The position numbers and the translations under genes are program-made. Under the pieces are notes generated by a model, which did no database searches, was not told where the DNA came from, and saw only the letters and a program-made list of their open reading frames with translations. DNA of 24,194 nt, from NCBI GenBank assembly GCA_964359335.1, contig CAYHSR010000001.1:1-24194 (forward strand). The letters run 5' to 3'. Source of the stretch: an uncultured Gammaproteobacteria bacterium. GTDB taxonomy: Bacteria; Patescibacteriota; Patescibacteriia; Magasanikbacterales; GWA2-37-8. Positions 1 to 8,802 of this stretch are shown here, one piece after another. How positions within the stretch are numbered: the stretch's first letter is position 1; every line of letters starts with the position of its first letter.

Positions 1-1
1 A

Positions 2-55
2 ACAGATAATTCCGCTTATTCGCCGGAGGTGAAGAGTGTGAGTGTGGGGAATTAA
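2..55 (+). CDS. Probable 3' end of an upstream gene (partial)
   Basis: Open frame from the window edge (TDNSAYSPEVKSVSVGN) ending in TAA at 53-55, 9 nt before the next ATG. Too short to identify. Confidence 0.35.
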   Translation, partial: TDNSAYSPEVKSVSVGN

Positions 56-64
56 TCTTGATCA

Positions 65-1501
65 ATGTCCATTTTATATAGACTTACGGTTTTTAGAGTA
101 TTATTGATTTACGCGCTCATCCGTTTGCTTTCTTTTTTGACTTGGAATCACGCGTACGCGAATCAAACGATTGCCGCCATGCTCATCTTGGCTTTTGTTT
201 ATATTTCCATAAAAAAACTTTCTTTCGCATGGATGATATTAATAGCGGAATTTTTTCTCAATGGAGCTGGACATTTTTTTGAATTTTTTGATTTGCTTTT
301 ACGAACTTGGTTTTTAGGAATTTTTGGCATCATCTGGCTGGCGCAAAAAGTAAAACAAAAAAATATTTGCGCTCATCCACAACTTTTTCTAAGCGCCAGT
401 ATTAGCTTGATTGTAGCTGGAGTGTTTCTTTTACTTTCCATCGTGAATGGGTATCTGCGCCAGCACACTATAATGTTTATCGCCCAAGACGCGATTCTGT
501 ATCTATTTTTTCTTTTATTATTCCCAGCGTTGGAAATGTTGAAATATCCAGATGCGACACTTGCTAAAATTGCGTATGGATATATTTTAGGATCAGCAAT
601 TTTTTCTTTTGTAACCGTTTATATTTACGCGAGCGGGATCGGAACTCTGCCGGACGCGTATTATCATTGGTTTCGCAATATCGCTGCTGGCAAAATTACC
701 GATATAGGAAATAATTTTTTTCGGATTGTTTTGCCTGAGCATTTGCTTATGGTTCCGGCAATTCTCATCATCGCGTCATATCTCATGAAAGATCCAAAAA
801 ATAAAAAACTCTGGTTATATATTATTTGCGCGTCATTTGTTCTTATGTTAAATTTTTCCAGAATATATTTTATTGGATTGATCGCGGGTTTTGTTATATT
901 AAAATTCAAGCAAAGTTTGAAAAATTGGTTCTTAATCTCTGCCACGGTTCTGATGTCAATTTTTTTGATGTTTATAGCCACTAACCTTATCGTGAGTCGT
1001 GGACAATCATTTGGTATTGAATTGTTGGGTGTTCGGATGGGAGGAATGACAGCACCTAAAACTGAGCTGAGCGGCGCCATCCGTTTGGCGTTGCTTCCGG
1101 ATATTTTTCGTACGATTAAACTTCATCCTTGGTTTGGTTCTGGTTTAGGAACAACCGTGTCATTTGTTCATCCAGTGACTAAAGAGTTAGAAATAAGGAC
1201 TCAATTTGATTGGGGATATCTGGAACTTCTGGCAGAGTTGGGGATTTTTGGAATGTTGGCGTATCTTATTTTTTTGCTGATTATTATATATATACTGGTT
1301 CGCCGCACTTGTTCCACCAATGGTCTGGCCAACAAGCACGGCTCTTTGTTCAACGGGCTTTTTGCCGGCGGGATAGCGCTTTTCATTATAAATATAACAA
1401 CTCCGGCGTTGTTTCAGGGTTTTGGAGTACTTTATTTTGTTTTTCTTTTAGTTCTTACAGTCGTAATTAAGCGTGAGGAACAGGCAATACATAATAAGTG
1501 A
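65..1501 (+). CDS. O-antigen ligase/polymerase (Wzy_C/WaaL-like) family membrane protein
   Basis: 478 aa, multiple TM segments; NFSRIYFIG loop, a conserved Arg in SGAIRLALL, HPWFGSGLG, and FDWGYLELLAELGIFG, matching the O-antigen ligase periplasmic loop pattern. Confidence 0.8.
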   Translation: MSILYRLTVFRVLLIYALIRLLSFLTWNHAYANQTIAAMLILAFVYISIKKLSFAWMILIAEFFLNGAGHFFEFFDLLLRTWFLGIFGIIWLAQKVKQKNICAHPQLFLSASISLIVAGVFLLLSIVNGYLRQHTIMFIAQDAILYLFFLLLFPALEMLKYPDATLAKIAYGYILGSAIFSFVTVYIYASGIGTLPDAYYHWFRNIAAGKITDIGNNFFRIVLPEHLLMVPAILIIASYLMKDPKNKKLWLYIICASFVLMLNFSRIYFIGLIAGFVILKFKQSLKNWFLISATVLMSIFLMFIATNLIVSRGQSFGIELLGVRMGGMTAPKTELSGAIRLALLPDIFRTIKLHPWFGSGLGTTVSFVHPVTKELEIRTQFDWGYLELLAELGIFGMLAYLIFLLIIIYILVRRTCSTNGLANKHGSLFNGLFAGGIALFIINITTPALFQGFGVLYFVFLLVLTVVIKREEQAIHNK

Positions 1502-1506
1502 TATAT

Positions 1507-1535
1507 TTGACTGTATCTATGTTTATTGTTATAAT
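1507..1535 (+). promoter_or_regulatory. Sigma70 promoter (extended -10) for the glycoside hydrolase gene
   Basis: TTGACT (1507-1512), 17-nt spacer, TGn plus TATAAT (1530-1535). Confidence 0.8.
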
Positions 1536-1566
1536 ATATTTATTATTTATTTAATGAAGAAAATTT

Positions 1567-3816
1567 ATGAGAAAATCATTGTTTTTCGTTGGCGCGTTTC
1601 TTTTATTAATTTTCACCGCTGGTTGCCAGGTTGATTTAGCCAATCTTGATCTATCCAAATTTAATATCGCGCAAGTTAAACAGGATCTTGTTAAATTACA
1701 AAAAAATGGCGGCGGCGTCAAGTTAGTCATTAAAAATGGAAAAACCGATACTTACAAAACCGCTCAAATATACCAACAGCTTACAAAGCCAGTACCGAAG
1801 CCAACACCAGTTCCAAATCCGAAGCCTACTCCTACACCAACTCCAACTCCGACACCCACGCCACAGCCGACTGACAAATGGAGCTTGTGGTCAAATGGCA
1901 CAAAATTGCGCGGCGCTAATATCTATCAAAGACGTGTTTATAAAGACTTAGATGGGGATACATTAGGTTCTGGTCCTGTTGGCCCGGTATTTACGCAACA
2001 AGATTTTGATGATCTGGCTAAATTAGGCGCTAATTGGGTGCAAATTGAACACCCAGGTTTTTACAGTGAAAAATCGCCATACATACTTGACATCAGCGTA
2101 CAGACCAATTTAGACAATCTAATCAGTATGGCCAAAAAAGCTAACTTGTTTGTTACTATTGCTTTTCGTACCGGTCCGGGCCGATCGGAATTTACTTTTT
2201 ATGATGAAGATGACGCAGATTGGTTCCCTGCTAGTTATAGAAATGATAATGTTTGGAAGGAAAAGGCTGCTCAGGACGCGTGGGCTGCTATGTGGAAATA
2301 TGTTGCCAATAGATATAAAGATGATCCAAAAATAGTTGGTTATAATTTAATGGTTGAACCAAATGGCGAATCTAGAGCTTTTACAACCGAACTGTGGGAA
2401 CCAGAAGAATTTTATCCAAAATACGCCAACACTTTAGCTGATTGGAACCAGATGTATCCAAAATTAGTTAGCGCGATCCGCCAATCAGATAGTAAAACCC
2501 CAATTATGGTTGGCTCGATGGGCTATAGTTCAGTGAATTGGTTACCATATATAAAGAAAATCAATGATTCCTATATAGTATATAGCGCTCATCAATATGA
2601 TCCATATGCTTATACGCATGACAGTGTGGCCAATTCCGTTTATCCCGGTAGTTTCAGTGTAGATGGCGAAAAAATTAATTTAAATAAAAGTTATTTAGAA
2701 AATGTCTATGCAAAGGCTATAAATGCCACCAAAAGTCATGGACGGCCATTAGTAATAGATGAATTTGGCGCGAATCGTTGGAAAATAGGTGTTGATAAGT
2801 TTATAGACGATAGTATGAGTATAATGGAAAAGAATGGAATAAATTACGCTATTTGGGTTTGGGATTCAGCTCAATGGATGAAAAATTTTTCAACCGATGA
2901 CAATTTTAACTTTACTCATGGGCCGAGTAAAAGTAATCACAAATATACAGAAAATAATCTGCTCAGTGTCGTAAAAAAGTATTTGGCAAAAAATACGACC
3001 CAAATTAAACCCGCTCCAACTCCAACACCGATTCCAACACCGACACCAATACCAACACCAATTCCCACTCCAACCACAACTCCAACTCCAACGTCTTCCG
3101 CTATTTGGATGCCAAAACCGCTAACAACATTTCAATGGCAGATTAGTGGAGATTCTATCGATTACAATATTGACGCTCAGGCCTATGATGTTGACGCGTT
3201 TGATGCAAGCAAAGACACGATAGATATTTTACACAAAAAAGGCAAGAAGGTAATTTGTTATGTTAATGTTGGTTCTTACGAAGATTGGCGTTCAGATAAA
3301 AATTCTTTTCCAGCTTCAATTTTGGGGAAAGATTATTCCGGTTGGCCTGGTGAAAAATGGTTAGACACGAGGAAATTAAATTTGCTTGGCCCGATAATGA
3401 AAAAACGTTTTGACATGGCCAAACAAAAAGGGTGTGATTCAATAGAGCCGGACAATATGGATAATCATGAAGCAAATTCTGGTTTCGCGATTACTTACCA
3501 AGACCAATTAAAATATAATATTTGGATAGCCAACGAAGTGCATAGCCGTGGCATGTCTGTCGGACTTAAAAATAACAGCGGCCAATTAAAAGATTTGTTG
3601 AGTTATTATGACTGGGCTTTGACGGAAAGTTGTTATGACCAAGGATGGTGTGATGATATGTTGCCGTTTACCAAATCCAATAAAGCTGTTTTTCAAGTTG
3701 AATATACTGAGAATGGAACGACTTTAAATCAATTTTGTCCACAAGCCAAAAAGAATCAGTTTACCGGAATACTTAAACACAGAATTCTAGACGCTTGGGT
3801 GCAGGTGTGTAAGTAA
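1567..3816 (+). CDS. Secreted or lipid-anchored modular glycoside hydrolase: signal peptide, PT linker, GH5-like TIM barrel, PT linker, GH114 (endo-alpha-1,4-polygalactosaminidase-like) domain
   Basis: N-terminal MRK plus hydrophobic stretch ending TAGC. GH5-like motifs GYNLMVEP, YSAHQYDP and VIDEFG. C-terminal domain has FQWQI, DVDAFD, VICYVNVGSYEDWR, WPGEKWLD, GCDSIEPDNMD, GLKN, LTESC and VFQVEY, typical of Glyco_hydro_114. Confidence 0.85.
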   Translation: MRKSLFFVGAFLLLIFTAGCQVDLANLDLSKFNIAQVKQDLVKLQKNGGGVKLVIKNGKTDTYKTAQIYQQLTKPVPKPTPVPNPKPTPTPTPTPTPTPQPTDKWSLWSNGTKLRGANIYQRRVYKDLDGDTLGSGPVGPVFTQQDFDDLAKLGANWVQIEHPGFYSEKSPYILDISVQTNLDNLISMAKKANLFVTIAFRTGPGRSEFTFYDEDDADWFPASYRNDNVWKEKAAQDAWAAMWKYVANRYKDDPKIVGYNLMVEPNGESRAFTTELWEPEEFYPKYANTLADWNQMYPKLVSAIRQSDSKTPIMVGSMGYSSVNWLPYIKKINDSYIVYSAHQYDPYAYTHDSVANSVYPGSFSVDGEKINLNKSYLENVYAKAINATKSHGRPLVIDEFGANRWKIGVDKFIDDSMSIMEKNGINYAIWVWDSAQWMKNFSTDDNFNFTHGPSKSNHKYTENNLLSVVKKYLAKNTTQIKPAPTPTPIPTPTPIPTPIPTPTTTPTPTSSAIWMPKPLTTFQWQISGDSIDYNIDAQAYDVDAFDASKDTIDILHKKGKKVICYVNVGSYEDWRSDKNSFPASILGKDYSGWPGEKWLDTRKLNLLGPIMKKRFDMAKQKGCDSIEPDNMDNHEANSGFAITYQDQLKYNIWIANEVHSRGMSVGLKNNSGQLKDLLSYYDWALTESCYDQGWCDDMLPFTKSNKAVFQVEYTENGTTLNQFCPQAKKNQFTGILKHRILDAWVQVCK
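1789..1872 (+). repeat. Pro/Thr-rich coding linker 1
   Basis: Degenerate CCNACN hexamer repeats encoding PVPKPTPVPNPKPTPTPTPTPTPTPQPT. Confidence 0.9.
3010..3093 (+). repeat. Pro/Thr-rich coding linker 2
   Basis: Degenerate CCNACN/CCNATN repeats encoding PAPTPTPIPTPTPIPTPIPTPTTTPTPT between the two catalytic domains. Confidence 0.9.
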
Positions 3817-3829
3817 TGTCTTATTCTTC

Positions 3830-3858
3830 TTGAATAAAAAATCAATTTATGCTAAACT
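3830..3858 (+). promoter_or_regulatory. Sigma70 promoter (extended -10) for secA
   Basis: TTGAAT (3830-3835), 17 nt, TGc plus TAAACT (3853-3858). Confidence 0.65.
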
Positions 3859-3890
3859 AAACAGGCCTAAAAATGGTCTGTTTTTATTTA
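3859..3890 (+). terminator. Intrinsic terminator-like hairpin between the GH gene and secA
   Basis: AAACAGGCC-TAAAAAT-GGTCTGTTT (one G-U pair) followed by a T-rich tail. Confidence 0.55.
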
Positions 3891-3895
3891 TCTTT

Positions 3896-6682
3896 ATGTC
3901 TTTTTTAACCAAACTTCTTGGTGATCCAAATAAAAAAATTATCGCCGGTATTCAACCGATAGTTGATAAAATAAACGCTCTTGAACCGGCAATGGCTGTT
4001 TTAAGTTTGGAACAATTAAAACAAAAAACTTTTGAATTTAAGGTAAGATTAAATCCGCCGACCGGCGGAGATGGCGAGACCTTAGATGATATTTTACCCG
4101 AGGCGTTTGCCGTGGCGCGGGAAGCGTCCAAACGTACGACTGGCATGCGCCATTATGATGTCCAATTAGTTGGCGGGGTGGTTTTGCATCGCGGTCAGAT
4201 CGCGGAAATGAAAACCGGTGAAGGAAAAACTTTAGTTGCAACTTTGTCAATATATTTAAATGCTTTAGCCTGCAAAGGCGTTCATTTAGTAACGGTCAAT
4301 GATTACTTAGCTAAACGTGACGCGATTTGGATGGGAAAGATTTATGACGCGTTGGGTTTGAGTGTCGGTGTGATACAGAATATGTTGGTGAGTTATCGGT
4401 ATGACGCGAAATTAAAAATGAAAAATGAAGAATTAAAAATAGATAATAAAGTTGAGGACGAGAAAGAGGCGGTGTTTAAAGTGGAAAATGAATATTTGGA
4501 ATCATGTTCGCGATCAGAGGCCTATAAATGCGATATTGTGTATGGCACCAATAACGAATTCGGGTTTGATTATTTACGCGACAACATGGCGCAAAATTGG
4601 GAAGACAAATCACAGCGGGAATTCAGTTTCGCAATCGTCGACGAGGTGGATTCTATTTTGATTGATGAAGCCCGAACGCCGTTAATCATATCAGCGCCAA
4701 CCGAAGATGCCAGTCAGATGTATTACAAATTTGCCGATTTAGTTAAGCGATTGAAAGAAAATGAAGATTATAATGTGGACGAAAAAATGCGCGCCGCTAC
4801 TTTAAGCGAAGCTGGTATAACCAAAATGGAACAATGGTTGAATATTGACAATATTTACGCCGAGGGAGGAATCAAGACCGTTCATCACGTTGAACAGGTC
4901 CTGCGCGCCCAAACATTATTTCAGAAGGACCGAGATTATATTATTGAAAACGATGAGGTCTTAATTGTTGATGAATTTACCGGCCGTAAGATGCCGGGTC
5001 GGCGTTATAGCGAGGGTTTGCATCAAGCAATTGAGGCCAAAGAGCGGGTGGTGATTCAACAAGAATCGCAAACCATGGCCACGATTACTTTTCAAAATTT
5101 TTTTCGGATGTATGACAAACTATCCGGTATGACTGGAACGGCCGTGACTGAAGCCGAGGAATTTGGCAAGATATATAATTTAGAAGTTGTCTCTATTCCC
5201 ACTCACAAACCAAACCAAAGAATCGATCAGCCGGATAAAATTTACAAAACCGAGGATCATAAATTTAAAGCGATTGCCAAATTAGTATGTGAACGGCAGA
5301 AAATTGGCCAGCCAATCTTAATCGGTACAGCGTCAGTGGAAAAAAACGAATTATTGTCAAAATATTTGGCCGACGAGGGTGTGGTTTTTGAGACCTTAAA
5401 CGCAAAAAACCACGAACGGGAGGGACAAACCATCGCTCAAGCGGGCCAATCAGGCAAGGTAACATTAGCGACCAATATGGCCGGACGCGGTGTGGATATT
5501 ATTTTGGGCGGTAATCCGATTGATATTGAAATGCAAAGCAAAGTTAAAGAATTGGGCGGGTTGTTGGTGATTGGCACAGAACGGCACGAAGCGCGTCGGA
5601 TTGACAATCAGTTGCGCGGACGCGCCGGACGCCAGGGCGATCAGGGTATGACGCAGTTTTATTTATCTACTCAAGACGATCTAATGCGGATTTTTGCCGG
5701 CGATCGTATTCGCTCGGTTATGAATACCTTGCGTGTGCCGGATGATCTACCGATTGAACAGAAATCAATTTCAAGAATTATTGAATCCGCGCAAAAAAAA
5801 GTGGAAGGGATTCATTTTGATACTCGTAAACATTTATTGGAATATGATGATGTGCTCAATCGCCATCGCGAGGTCGTGTACGGCAAGCGTGATGAAATAT
5901 TAAAAACTTTTTCCAAACAGAAAAAAGGCGAGGAAGTATCAATTAAACAAACTTTACGCGCCAAAATTTTACAAATGGTTGAGCAAGAAATAGAAAATTT
6001 AATTTCTTTTCATACTAATTCTGAAGAAAAGCGTGATTGGAACATTCAAGAAATTAATGAATCCATTCAGACCATTTTTCCTTTACAGCCAATCGAAAAA
6101 GATAAAATCATGGAATTTGCTAAAGTTGATGGAGTAGGGAAGTTAGGCGAAGTGGAAGCGCGCACGGCAATTATTGAATATGCGGTTGAATTGGCTAAAC
6201 AAAATTATGATAATTTGTTAGTCAAGCCAATGCCTGATTCGAATTTATTAATTGAGATTGAAAAACAGGTGCTGTTGCGCGGGATTGATAATTTATGGGT
6301 AGATCATTTGGTCGCCATTGATTATTTACGCACAGGTATCGGCCTGCGCGGTTATGGTCAGCGCGATCCGTTGGTTGAGTATAAAAAAGAAACCTATCGG
6401 ATGTTTCATGAATTGTTGGACGCGATAAACAAAGAAGTCGTGTATTTGATTTATAAAATTAATATTGGTATTCAATTAGCCCCTTCGGTAATGGCCAAAG
6501 GAAATTTACAGCTGTCCGGAGCGTCCAAAACATCCGGCAGTAACGGTCTTGCTCTTTTGTCGGTCGGTAATAAACAAAAAAATTCAGATGGTTCTAAAGT
6601 CGGACGCAACGATCCTTGCGTTTGCGGAGCGACCAATAGTGACGGCACGCCAAAAAAATATAAAAAGTGTTGCGGAAAATAA
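3896..6682 (+). CDS. secA: Preprotein translocase ATPase SecA (928 aa; start moved from track TTG 3830 to ATG 3896)
   Basis: MKTGEGKT Walker A, DEVDSILIDEARTPLIIS, QLRGRAGRQGD, and C-terminal GRNDPC zinc-binding motif. The upstream TTG is the promoter -35. Confidence 0.98.
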   Translation: MSFLTKLLGDPNKKIIAGIQPIVDKINALEPAMAVLSLEQLKQKTFEFKVRLNPPTGGDGETLDDILPEAFAVAREASKRTTGMRHYDVQLVGGVVLHRGQIAEMKTGEGKTLVATLSIYLNALACKGVHLVTVNDYLAKRDAIWMGKIYDALGLSVGVIQNMLVSYRYDAKLKMKNEELKIDNKVEDEKEAVFKVENEYLESCSRSEAYKCDIVYGTNNEFGFDYLRDNMAQNWEDKSQREFSFAIVDEVDSILIDEARTPLIISAPTEDASQMYYKFADLVKRLKENEDYNVDEKMRAATLSEAGITKMEQWLNIDNIYAEGGIKTVHHVEQVLRAQTLFQKDRDYIIENDEVLIVDEFTGRKMPGRRYSEGLHQAIEAKERVVIQQESQTMATITFQNFFRMYDKLSGMTGTAVTEAEEFGKIYNLEVVSIPTHKPNQRIDQPDKIYKTEDHKFKAIAKLVCERQKIGQPILIGTASVEKNELLSKYLADEGVVFETLNAKNHEREGQTIAQAGQSGKVTLATNMAGRGVDIILGGNPIDIEMQSKVKELGGLLVIGTERHEARRIDNQLRGRAGRQGDQGMTQFYLSTQDDLMRIFAGDRIRSVMNTLRVPDDLPIEQKSISRIIESAQKKVEGIHFDTRKHLLEYDDVLNRHREVVYGKRDEILKTFSKQKKGEEVSIKQTLRAKILQMVEQEIENLISFHTNSEEKRDWNIQEINESIQTIFPLQPIEKDKIMEFAKVDGVGKLGEVEARTAIIEYAVELAKQNYDNLLVKPMPDSNLLIEIEKQVLLRGIDNLWVDHLVAIDYLRTGIGLRGYGQRDPLVEYKKETYRMFHELLDAINKEVVYLIYKINIGIQLAPSVMAKGNLQLSGASKTSGSNGLALLSVGNKQKNSDGSKVGRNDPCVCGATNSDGTPKKYKKCCGK
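4054..4069. repeat. Short GC-rich palindrome in frame in secA
   Basis: TCCGCC-GACC-GGCGGA, encoding PPTGG. Confidence 0.7.
4408..4449 (+). repeat. Degenerate heptamer tandem array (6 x 7 nt) in frame in secA
   Basis: GAAATTA AAAATGA AAAATGA AGAATTA AAAATAG ATAATAA; encodes KLKMKNEELKIDNK. Confidence 0.65.
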
Positions 6683-6686
6683 CCCC

Positions 6687-6715
6687 TTGCCTTTTTTTCA
6701 TAAATGGTTTAAAAT
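6687..6715 (+). promoter_or_regulatory. Sigma70 promoter for secD-secF
   Basis: TTGCCT (6687-6692), 17 nt, TAAAAT (6710-6715). Confidence 0.6.
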
Positions 6716-6744
6716 CAAAGAAAAGTTTTTATCAAATTTATTTT

Positions 6745-8802
6745 ATGAATCCTATCCAAAAAAAGACCAAATCCCTGACTCGTTCAAAATTACGAACTCA
6801 TATTATCGCGATTATCGCGCTGATAGTTTTATGTTTAGTATTCGTCTTACCTGGCAAAATCAATCAAGGTATTGATTGGGTTAATGCTAAGGCCAATATT
6901 GGCGTGCCTAAATTACCGGCCGCCGATTTCAATTTAGGTTTGGATTTGCAGGGTGGCGCGCACTTAATTTATCAAGCTGATATAAGTACGATTAAAGACA
7001 GTGATCGGGTGGATTCAGTTGAAGGTGTGCGGGATGTAATTGAAAGAAGAGTCCGAGGTGGATTGGGAGTGGGCGAACCGGTTGTACAGACCACTAAGGT
7101 TGGTAAGGATTATCGAGTCATAGTGGAATTGCCAGGAATTAAAGATACAAACAAAGCAATTAAGATGATCGGCGAAACGCCGACTTTAGAATTTAAAGAA
7201 GAAAGTAAAGAACCTGCCCGCGCTTTGACTTCAGTCGAGACAAAAGAGATGAATGATTTTAATAATAAAGCCAAAGATAAAGCCCAGAAGGCCTTGGATG
7301 AAATTAAAAAGGGATCGGATTTTGCTTCGGTCGTAAAAAATTTCACTGAGGACGGTGAAACGATCAAAAACAACAGCGGTTCATTAGGTTATATTGATGA
7401 TTCAGTCTATCCCGAAATTTATAACTGGGCCAGTAAGGCCAAAGATGGCGAAATTAGCAAGGATTTAGTCAAATCTACTACCGGTTATAATGTTTTAAAA
7501 AGAGCGGCGATTAAAGACAGTGGCATAGAAGTTAAGGCCAGTCATATTTTAATCTGTTATGCTGGCGCGCAACGATGCGATGCCGCTATTTATAAAACCA
7601 AAGAAGAAGCCAAAAAGAAAATTGAGGAAATTAAAAAAGAAGTGACCGTGAAAAATTTTGTCACTTTAGCCAAAAAATATTCCACTGAACCGTCAGCCGC
7701 GCAAACCGGTGGAGAATTAGGTTGGTTTAGTAAAGGGCAAATGGTCGTTGAATTTGAGAATGCCGCTTTTTCTATAGCAACTGGCACAATTTCCAATGTG
7801 GTAGAAACCTCTTTTGGCTATCATATAATTTTAAAAGAAGATCAACGATCTAAAAAGGAGTATCAAGTGGCCAGGGTGTTTACGGCCACTAAATCAGCGA
7901 CAGATATTGTGCCGGCGTCGGAACAATGGAAATCCACCGGTTTGTCCGGCAAACAGTTAAAGCGGGCGGAAGTGACTCAAGACAACCAAACAGGACAGGT
8001 TCAGGTTAGTTTAAATTTTGATGCTGAGGGTACGAAATTATTTGCCGATATTACGACTAAAAACAAAGGTAAGTTAGTCGCGATATTTTTAGATGGCCAG
8101 TCAATTAGTATTCCTCGAGTTAATGAAGCAATTTTGAGCGGTCAAGCGGTGATTAGCGGCGGTTTTACGATTAGCGAGGCGCAATTATTGGCTAGACGGC
8201 TTAATTCCGGCGCTTTACCGGTGGCCATTAAATTAATTAGCCAACAAACAGTTGACGCGACATTAGGCGCCGATTCATTACAAAAAAGTTCTTATGCCGC
8301 GTTGATTGGTTTATTGTTGGTAATTTTATTCATGATTATTTATTATCGTTTGCCCGGTGTGATTTCGGCTTTGGCCTTAGGCATTTACGCTGTATTATCG
8401 TTAGCGATTTTCAAATTAGCCGGCGTTACCTTAACACTTTCGGGCATCGCTGGATTCATCCTGTCTTTGGGTATGGCTGTTGATGCCAATGTTTTGATTT
8501 TTGAACGGCTTAAAGAAGAATTACAAGCCAAACGCAATTTACGACCTGCCATTGAAGATGCGTTTGTGCGCGCTTGGCCGTCTATTCGCGATGGTAACAT
8601 TACCACTCTTTTGAGTTGTGTCTTCTTAATTTGGTTTGGCAGTGGTTTTGTGCAGGGTTTTGCTGTCACTTTGGCGATTGGTGTTTTGGCCAGTATGTTT
8701 ACCGCGATTATCATCAGTAAAGCCATTATCCGTTTAATTAGTTATTGGACCAAAGAAGAAGGGAATTGGACGTTTTTAGGATATAAGAAAAGAATTATAT
8801 GA
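6745..8802 (+). CDS. secD: Protein translocase subunit SecD with inserted parvulin-type PPIase domains (685 aa; start moved to ATG 6745)
   Basis: LGLDLQGG, DVIERRV, VIVELPG, LARRLNSGALP, GMAVDANVLIFER and SIRDGNITT SecD motifs. The insert contains VKASHIL, GGELGWF and FGYHII parvulin motifs. Confidence 0.97.
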   Translation: MNPIQKKTKSLTRSKLRTHIIAIIALIVLCLVFVLPGKINQGIDWVNAKANIGVPKLPAADFNLGLDLQGGAHLIYQADISTIKDSDRVDSVEGVRDVIERRVRGGLGVGEPVVQTTKVGKDYRVIVELPGIKDTNKAIKMIGETPTLEFKEESKEPARALTSVETKEMNDFNNKAKDKAQKALDEIKKGSDFASVVKNFTEDGETIKNNSGSLGYIDDSVYPEIYNWASKAKDGEISKDLVKSTTGYNVLKRAAIKDSGIEVKASHILICYAGAQRCDAAIYKTKEEAKKKIEEIKKEVTVKNFVTLAKKYSTEPSAAQTGGELGWFSKGQMVVEFENAAFSIATGTISNVVETSFGYHIILKEDQRSKKEYQVARVFTATKSATDIVPASEQWKSTGLSGKQLKRAEVTQDNQTGQVQVSLNFDAEGTKLFADITTKNKGKLVAIFLDGQSISIPRVNEAILSGQAVISGGFTISEAQLLARRLNSGALPVAIKLISQQTVDATLGADSLQKSSYAALIGLLLVILFMIIYYRLPGVISALALGIYAVLSLAIFKLAGVTLTLSGIAGFILSLGMAVDANVLIFERLKEELQAKRNLRPAIEDAFVRAWPSIRDGNITTLLSCVFLIWFGSGFVQGFAVTLAIGVLASMFTAIIISKAIIRLISYWTKEEGNWTFLGYKKRII

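Follow-up and report, generated by a model that had tools for sequence, protein, structure and literature searches.

A predicted surface lipoprotein joining GH5-like and GH114 hydrolase domains in a Patescibacteria genome

What would a cell of the candidate phyla radiation (CPR) do with two different glycan hydrolases carried on a single surface protein, and on which polymer would they act? The question is raised by one gene in a 24,194-nucleotide stretch of DNA (contig CAYHSR010000001.1 of assembly GCA_964359335.1; GTDB phylum Patescibacteriota, order Magasanikbacterales), which is referred to below, at its full length, as the window. It is the complete contig C1 of a metagenome-assembled genome (MAG), G000, of 855 kb in 169 contigs with a completeness of 91% and a contamination of 2.9%. 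On the forward strand, an uninterrupted reading frame at 1567..3816 encodes a 749-residue predicted lipoprotein, P0001, in which a GH5-like domain is followed by a GH114 domain. We lean towards reading P0001 as a surface-anchored, two-domain degrader of a foreign cationic exopolysaccharide of galactosamine and N-acetylgalactosamine (GalN/GalNAc), or of a matrix containing one.

Layout of P0001 and its two catalytic domains

The gene is both the sole PF00150 (GH5) match and the sole PF03537 (GH114) match in the genome. The former lies at residues 143-435 (90.6 bits, cut-off 23.5), while the latter lies at residues 521-744 (260 bits, cut-off 27) and spans the profile from its first to its last position (1-231 of 231). 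The protein begins with MRKSLFFVGAFLLLIFTAGC, which comprises a basic n-region, a hydrophobic core and then A-G-C with Cys20; read by eye, this lipobox (M-R-K ... L-L-L-I-F-T-A-G-C20) fits the PROSITE-type rule. Lipoprotein processing would be possible, since Lgt (PF01790, 138 bits) and signal peptidase II/LspA (PF01252, 87 bits) are both encoded in the genome with scores above cut-off. The elements of the gene, with the method behind each (AF2 stands for AlphaFold2), are as follows:

1567..3816, + strand: coding sequence of the 749-residue lipoprotein P0001, stop codon included (open reading frame and Pfam)
1567..1626, + strand: signal peptide with lipobox, residues 1-20, Cys20 (sequence pattern)
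1627..1785, + strand: N-terminal module of 53 residues, residues 21-73, basic, pI 9.6 (alignment with the lipoprotein encoded on contig C76)
1786..1875, + strand: Pro/Thr/Lys linker 1, residues 74-103 (73% Pro+Thr)
1876..3006, + strand: GH5-like catalytic domain, residues 104-480 (Pfam, AF2 model, Foldseek, profile alignment)
2356-2358, + strand: codon of Glu264, placed on the Glu of the TtEnd5A NEP motif by profile alignment
2761-2763, + strand: codon of Glu399, in the motif IDEFG, the usual E-F-G nucleophile motif
3007..3090, + strand: Pro/Thr/Ile linker 2, residues 481-508 (82% Pro+Thr)
3091..3813, + strand: GH114 catalytic domain, residues 509-749 (Pfam, Ega3 alignment, AF2 model, Foldseek)
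3451-3453, + strand: codon of Asp629, aligned to Ega3 Asp189
3625-3627, + strand: codon of Glu687, aligned to Ega3 Glu247

By sequence, catalytic residues and modelled fold, the C-terminal domain is assigned to GH114 proper, and not to GH191 or GH166. The fungal enzyme Ega3 (6OJ1) matches it over the whole length in HMMER with an E-value of 9e-51, whereas a second GH114 from fungi, FsGH114 (9EP6), and Env-GH191 (9EP5) match more weakly, at 5e-21 and 6.5e-7, respectively. Ega3 has a verified catalytic pair, Asp189 and Glu247, and a tryptophan, Trp154, at the tip of a mobile loop (PMC12054363); the HMMER alignment pairs these with Asp629, Glu687 and Trp593 of P0001, the last of which lies in the motif GWPGEKW. 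By homology to Ega3, Asp629 would thus serve as nucleophile, Glu687 as acid/base and Trp593 as the tryptophan of the mobile loop. Both acidic residues are invariant in 45 GH114 relatives and the tryptophan is nearly so. Furthermore, all six cysteines of the domain pair with cysteines of Ega3, and a conserved disulfide pattern has been described for the fungal GH114 enzymes (PMC12054363). The AF2 model, a modified (beta/alpha)8 barrel with a beta3 insertion and the Trp loop, has a predicted local distance difference test score (pLDDT) of 95.8, and Foldseek superposes it on Ega3 with a template-modelling (TM) score of 0.92 and a root-mean-square deviation of 2.0 Å, followed by FsGH114 (0.82), the GH191 enzymes (0.79) and the PelA hydrolase domain (0.76). 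Elsewhere among the relatives, the 1579-residue metagenome protein P0122 contains five GH114-like stretches in one chain and P0123-P0125 and P0146 carry two to four, so tandem GH114 arrays exist.

The GH5-like domain is further from any solved enzyme. Its AF2 model has a pLDDT of 89.7 and all 50 of the 50 Foldseek matches listed are GH5 enzymes, the best being TtEnd5A, a GH5 endoglucanase of Thermogutta terrifontis (TM 0.72/0.81, about 20% identity over the structural alignment); in addition, a profile built from 51 relatives matches TtEnd5A at E 1e-27. GH5 enzymes carry the acid/base glutamate on strand 4 and the nucleophile glutamate on strand 7. In P0001 the corresponding residues are Glu264 and Glu399, which are invariant, together with Pro265, Asn266 and many more columns, in 75 members of the family (the TtEnd5A position aligned to Glu264 reads Ala in the 8ANX chain, an entry described as the E329A mutant). 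The asparagine of the canonical GH5 NEP motif binds the 2-hydroxyl of the subsite -1 sugar. Here it is replaced by Val263, giving V-E-P-N in P0001 versus N-E-P in TtEnd5A, and the same position in the 75 family sequences (alignments A1 and A2) is occupied by V in 62, C in 11, I in two and N in none. We therefore call the domain GH5-like and regard it as an atypical subfamily, and the family-wide absence of this asparagine suggests a substrate that differs at C2. Judged from alignment and model, the domain is best described as an intact GH5-fold retaining hydrolase, predicted to act through the conserved Glu264 and Glu399, that belongs to an uncharacterised and mainly Chloroflexota family.

A preliminary description, drawn from the letters of this stretch, had proposed a lipobox-like N-terminus, catalytic GH5 and GH114 domains and extended Pro/Thr (PT) stalks, and all of these are borne out by the Cys20 pattern with Lgt and LspA, by the Pfam matches, folds and catalytic residues, and by the linker compositions. 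It had also allowed that the C-terminal domain might turn out not to be GH114 or to lack its catalytic Asp/Glu, both of which are in fact kept. Its statement that GH5 enzymes cut beta-glycans fares less evenly: the GH5 fold and the catalytic glutamates stand, but a standard beta-glucanase-type activity does not follow for a family that lacks the NEP asparagine and whose nearest structure is about 20% identical, which leaves the statement a family-level guess.

Distribution of the fusion and its origin

The GH5-like domain has relatives at 280 loci in species-representative genomes. The best 80 of these are mostly from Chloroflexota (Anaerolineae, Dehalococcoidia, Ardenticatenia, Caldilineae and others), with a minority titled Acidobacteria, KSB1, Acetothermia, Thermotogae, Theseobacter, 'uncultured bacterium' or 'Patescibacteria group bacterium'. 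Among Patescibacteria the domain is rare. It occurs in one of 40 close relatives, the same-genus genome G002, as a 449-residue lipoprotein that is 66% identical and ends where linker 2 of P0001 begins, and in one of an even sample of 400 genomes of the phylum, again as a lipoprotein (60% identical; G173). A stand-alone GH114 gene (464 residues, 49% identical) was found among the 40 close relatives in one genome of another genus of the same family, and 11 genomes of the 400 carry GH114, in every case alone in an open frame of 172-404 residues. The fusion of the two domains was not found in these roughly 440 related genomes. The distant genus g168 of family f67 holds the closest Patescibacteria homologues of both domains, a GH5-like one at 60% identity (G173) and stand-alone GH114s at 57% (G273) and 55% (G302), which never occur in one genome within the sample. 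Where stand-alone GH114 relatives are named, they are from Parcubacteria, Micrarchaeota and Chloroflexota (53-60% identical), and GH114 genes in CPR genomes are already annotated in public records.

Beyond the phylum the architecture recurs. PF00150 and PF03537 are both present in 28 of the 120 best database matches to the whole of P0001, mostly from Chloroflexota, so that the architecture is not unique; none of these fusions is characterised as far as the PDB and the literature show. The order of the domains varies. Alignment places an Ega3-like GH114 partner C-terminally in P0002-4 and P0007-9 and N-terminally in P0005 and P0006, and a GH191 (TM1410/TIGR01370) partner C-terminally in many proteins and N-terminally in P0109. 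In a tree of 180 GH5-like domains, 41 rows are fused to a GH114 or GH191-like domain, N- or C-terminal, and these are scattered over many clades; by the starred branches alone, C-terminal GH114 must have changed at least four times and C-terminal GH191 at least 12 times, counts that are inflated by incomplete proteins. GH191-like domains are the commonest fusion partner of the family, whose other partners include beta-helix, CBM11, CAP, propeller and GDSL esterase domains, and in P0141 a different, more canonical GH5 is also fused to GH114. Such independent and repeated fusion is good evidence, at the sequence level, that both activities work together.

The GH5 tree separates P0001 from the Chloroflexota proteins. 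Its GH5-like domain falls in a seven-row clade with a support of 100 in both FastTree and IQ-TREE; the two of its members that have names are titled 'Patescibacteria group bacterium' and 'bacterium', and every row of the clade other than P0001 is without GH114. The Chloroflexota GH5+GH114 fusions form a separate clade, also with a support of 100, and an approximately unbiased (AU) test rejects a grouping of P0001 with them (log-likelihood difference 279, p 1e-6), the tested group having been chosen after inspection of the tree. Judged from this tree, the P0001 fusion arose separately from those of Chloroflexota. The GH114 tree is poorly resolved, and many stand-alone GH114s, from Parcubacteria, Micrarchaeota, Chloroflexota and unnamed metagenome proteins, show 49-60% identity to the P0001 domain; naming a GH114 donor was rejected on these grounds, the tree being also compatible with a single origin of the GH5-linked GH114 domains. 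Of the per-domain phylogenies that the preliminary description had called for, the GH5 one yields a separate clade, and the GH114 one is too weakly resolved to contribute. The simplest reading is that the fusion was born within its own lineage, when a resident GH5-like lipoprotein gene was joined to GH114 via a PT linker, with repeated selection of this pairing in other lineages. The surface enzyme itself was probably acquired rather than inherited.

Transcription unit, anchor cassette and neighbouring genes

Three further features frame the gene:

1507..1535, + strand: sigma-70-type promoter, TTGACT, 17-nt spacer, TG-extended TATAAT (11/12 consensus positions)
3859..3893, + strand: terminator-like hairpin, 9-bp stem, 7-nt loop, then a T-rich tail, 43 nt past the stop codon (terminator scan)
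65..1501, + strand: Wzy_C (O-antigen ligase/polymerase-like) membrane protein, the upstream neighbour, listed as context only (PF04932, 49 bits)

The predicted promoter sits in the 65 nt that separate the Wzy_C gene from the start codon and is the top-scoring site in 1..8000, so that the near-consensus TTGACT-17-TGnTATAAT element of the preliminary description holds up as a sequence. In the same interval 21 promoter-like sites were found against 23 expected by chance, and it is therefore only the quality and the intergenic position of 1507..1535 that count. At the other end, the segment 3817-3900 folds at -15.1 kcal/mol (z -3.9), a value equalled by none of 200 shuffles. The long open reading frame of secA, the gene immediately downstream, starts at TTG 3830 and overlaps this hairpin. 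The SecA family models, however, match the long frame only from residue 26-27, and ATG 3897 yields a typical SecA N-terminus; TTG 3830 therefore probably lies too far upstream, and ATG 3897 is the probable start. With the terminator-like hairpin at 3859-3893 and secA probably beginning at ATG 3897, the hydrolase gene looks monocistronic, with its own predicted promoter and terminator.

The strong promoter also appears to belong to a larger, duplicated unit. Contig C76 of the same genome encodes, at 2128-4293, a complete 721-residue lipoprotein with the same lipobox, a 53-residue module about 79% identical to that of P0001 and a linker of the same PT type (locus L002, 1501-3336, covers its first 612 residues). 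Homology between the two genes at the DNA level takes in the -10 region, the 5' untranslated region (UTR) and the first ~300 coding bases, and because it reaches the 5' UTR and the -10 element, the promoter would be part of a duplicated promoter, leader and anchor unit; the C76 gene itself has TTGACA, about 16 nt and TG-n-TACAAT. Beyond this cassette, another domain and a second PT linker of the C76 protein lead to a right-handed beta-helix region, which closes with a DIGAYE-type motif. The beta-helix matches PF13229 at E 1e-4, which is below the cut-off, and shows weak similarity (E about 1e-6) to the beta-helices of Chloroflexota proteins in which the GH5-like domain also occurs. By these alignments, the lineage uses the duplicated unit for at least two putative glycan-active surface proteins, which fits a small surface toolkit for glycan degradation made up of P0001 and the C76 lipoprotein. 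For the 53-residue module, a search of 5.8 billion proteins, within the range of 412-1310 residues covered, returned no homologue besides C76. A third open frame with two long Pro/Thr/Lys linkers, 276 residues in length, lies on the + strand of contig C21, in a frame from near 7962.

Repeats of another kind surround the homologue in G002. There (locus L003, contig C6) inverted repeats enclose the gene of the stand-alone GH5-like lipoprotein together with a divergent gene for a GT2 glycosyltransferase; their arms, at about 1008-1308 and 3541-3766, share stretches of 77 nt at 94%, 34 nt at 91% and 31 nt at 97%. A cassette bounded by miniature inverted-repeat transposable elements (MITEs) was considered for the P0001 locus and rejected: it has no comparable flanking inverted repeats, and only one 32-nt fragment of the G002 repeat occurs elsewhere in G000.

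The hydrolase gene is thus flanked by Wzy_C upstream and secA downstream, and the contig begins 64 nt ahead of the Wzy_C gene, so that the assembly offers no genes upstream of the window to inspect. The Wzy_C protein reaches only 34-35% identity with its best counterparts in the two same-genus genomes. In these genomes it is an MscS channel gene, in place of Wzy_C or the hydrolase, that precedes secA, which marks the left 3.8 kb of the contig as variable. At 0.36-0.40, the GC content of 1-4000 resembles that of the remaining contig; a compositional island was accordingly rejected, with no signal of recent transfer. Further along the window, the SecD protein (6667-8802) has parvulin-type peptidyl-prolyl isomerase (rotamase) domains inserted at about residues 277-400 (PF13616 and PF00639, E 1e-36).

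Candidate substrates and relation to known systems

Taken step by step, the reading that we favour, a surface degrader of a foreign GalN polymer, would run as follows. A strong promoter and a dedicated terminator would produce a single transcription unit, and the enzyme would be extracellular, probably lipid-anchored at Cys20, holding its two catalytic domains on flexible Pro/Thr linkers. GH114, as a retaining endo-alpha-1,4-galactosaminidase, would cut deacetylated alpha-1,4-GalN stretches, and the GH5-like domain would cut a second bond type in the same material. The target may be Pel-like, galactosaminogalactan (GAG)-like or a heteropolymer that also has equatorial linkages, and would be made by a host or by the surrounding biofilm, so that the enzyme may serve host access, nutrition or both, or else detachment. 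The repeated fusion to GH114 or GH191, in both orders, suggests that the two domains most likely act together on one GalN/GalNAc polymer or matrix. In addition, profile searches of the 91%-complete genome returned no match to PelG (PF16933) or to a CE4 deacetylase (PF01522); the target is therefore probably made by other organisms, and a self-made Pel-type polymer is unlikely. These two negatives would also be the sole indirect backing for the idea, put forward in the preliminary description, of a tool that tunnels through host exopolysaccharide. The gene lies between Wzy_C and secA, not alongside the synthesis and export genes and deacetylase of a Pel-type system.

Several considerations weigh against this reading. 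Domain fusion indicates functional coupling, not a shared substrate, and we know of no enzyme of the GH5-like family with a known substrate. Enzymes of clan GH-A act on equatorial (beta-D or alpha-L) bonds, and Pel and GAG are described as alpha-1,4, so the GH5-like domain may cut a polymer other than these. The genes beside the Chloroflexota fusions at loci L008 and L013 (M81 peptidase, acyl-CoA dehydrogenase, NAD synthase, DegV and PAP2) give no functional hint. At a completeness of 91% in 169 contigs, the absence of PelG and CE4 is not proven; lipidation is judged from the sequence pattern, and both expression and the continuity of the fusion are read from the assembly. Finally, bacterial GH114 enzymes have so far proved refractory to soluble expression, and a single one is partly characterised (PMC12054363), so that the GH114 specificity is extrapolated from fungal Ega3 at 36-45% identity.

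A second, more tentative explanation, which comes close to the preliminary description, has two unrelated targets in a biofilm or cell envelope: GH114 would cut an alpha-1,4-GalN polymer, and the GH5-like domain a beta-glycan (cellulose, mixed-linkage glucan, mannan or a wall polymer), the two being fused for joint display. All the solved structures nearest to the GH5-like domain (TtEnd5A, CelC, TM1752 and Cel5A) belong to beta-glycanases, the chemistry of its clan suits equatorial bonds, and the many further partners of the family are in keeping with a tool for more than one polymer. However, the family never has the asparagine that binds the 2-hydroxyl of gluco- or manno-configured substrates, which counts against a standard beta-glucanase, and its most recurrent partner is a galactosaminidase-type domain, drawn from two families and placed in both orders, which is hard to explain without a shared substrate or matrix.

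A bolder extension of the favoured reading, which we regard as rather unlikely, would make the LM[V/C/I]EPN GH5-like family an unrecognised class of hydrolases for cationic GalN/GalNAc exopolysaccharides, a companion to GH114, GH191, GH135 and GH166, with the loss of the asparagine as an adaptation to a 2-amino or 2-acetamido sugar; P0001 would then be a self-contained two-step depolymerase displayed to breach or feed on the matrix of a host.

Less probable still is that the enzyme trims or releases the cell's own surface polysaccharide, assembled with the adjacent Wzy_C-type protein, as PelA, PslG and BcsZ do in their systems. The Wzy_C gene lies directly upstream on the same strand, dedicated hydrolases are found in many exopolysaccharide systems, CcsZ, a GH5 of a cellulose synthase operon, is among the fold matches, and the GH5 homologue of G002 adjoins a GT2 glycosyltransferase gene. 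On the other hand, the hydrolase gene has a promoter and a terminator of its own, the same-genus genomes do not have Wzy_C and the hydrolase side by side in front of secA and their Wzy_C is only 34% identical, and PelG and CE4, which known pathways require for a cationic GalN polymer, were not found in the genome. No biosynthetic cluster is visible, since the contig begins 64 nt before the Wzy_C gene. The suggestion in the preliminary description that the enzyme remodels the product of the neighbouring O-antigen ligase locus consequently finds no support, given the separate transcription signals and an adjacency that is not conserved in either of the two same-genus genomes.

Lastly, a misjoining of separate GH5 and GH114 genes within the low-complexity Pro/Thr linker during assembly is scarcely credible: relatives do encode both domains as separate genes, the MAG is fragmented (169 contigs) and Pro/Thr linkers occur in at least three genes of the genome, but the reading frame is unbroken, the stand-alone G002 homologue stops exactly at the linker start, so that a chimera would need a pre-existing linker there, equivalent fusions occur in many independent assemblies, and linker 2 shares no identical DNA stretch of more than 15 nt with the rest of the assembly, which makes a repeat-mediated join unlikely.

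P0001 is of interest in two respects. Anti-biofilm work seeks enzymes able to cut Pel and galactosaminogalactan, and P0001 with the roughly 40 related fusions offers the testable idea of an uncharacterised GH5-like family and galactosaminidases that attack one matrix jointly. For CPR biology, it adds a predicted surface-displayed glycan-degrading enzyme that shares a duplicated promoter-and-anchor cassette with a second putative glycan-active lipoprotein, equipment of the sort expected of a cell living on or from other cells.

It is no new kind of system: GH114 enzymes, multi-domain carbohydrate-active enzymes (CAZymes) on PT linkers and lipoprotein anchoring are all known already. As far as the PDB and the literature show, what has so far gone undescribed is the GH5-like family without the NEP asparagine, its recurrent fusions to galactosaminidase domains, and the Patescibacteria version with its duplicated anchor cassette; literature searches on the TtEnd5A subfamily, and on GH114 with Patescibacteria or Chloroflexi, returned nothing usable.

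Among characterised enzymes, the nearest is Ega3 of Aspergillus fumigatus (CAZy GH114, PDB 6OJ1/6OJB), an endo-alpha-1,4-galactosaminidase that disrupts GAG and Pel biofilms. The two domains are about 45% identical by eye in the HMMER alignment and 36% in that of Foldseek, and the catalytic residues, the tryptophan and the six cysteines are kept; whereas Ega3 is fungal, single-domain and membrane-tethered, the GH114 of P0001 is bacterial and shares its lipoprotein, in which it is the C-terminal module, with a GH5-like domain. Env-GH191, TmGH191 (TM1410) and the PelA hydrolase domain (GH166) represent galactosaminidase-type families that act, or are proposed to act, on Pel or galactosaminogalactan, and they share with the P0001 domain the fold class (TM 0.76-0.79) and the Asp/Glu catalytic pair (PMC12054363). 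The P0001 domain differs from Env-GH191 as a GH114 proper, as reflected in the E-values of 9e-51 to Ega3 versus 6.5e-7 to Env-GH191. For the GH5-like domain the closest solved relative is TtEnd5A (PDB 8AG9, 8ANX, 8B3Y), with which it has in common the (beta/alpha)8 GH5 fold, the motifs around both catalytic glutamates and an H-x-Y...THQ stretch, but TtEnd5A has the canonical N-E-P where the P0001 family reads V/C/I-E-P-N. The whole architecture is most closely approached by the Chloroflexota MAG fusions of a GH5-like domain with GH114 or GH191 (for example P0002-P0009, P0017 and P0120; loci L007-L010 and L013), which combine the same two domain types behind mostly lipobox-like N-termini. They share with P0001 the motifs RTGPGRSEF, LM[V/C/I]EPN, DWNQ and HQY.P..YTH, and the overall identity to the GH114-type fusions is 46-47%, whereas P0001 is set apart by its long PT-repeat linkers and by the extra N-terminal module that the Chloroflexota proteins lack.

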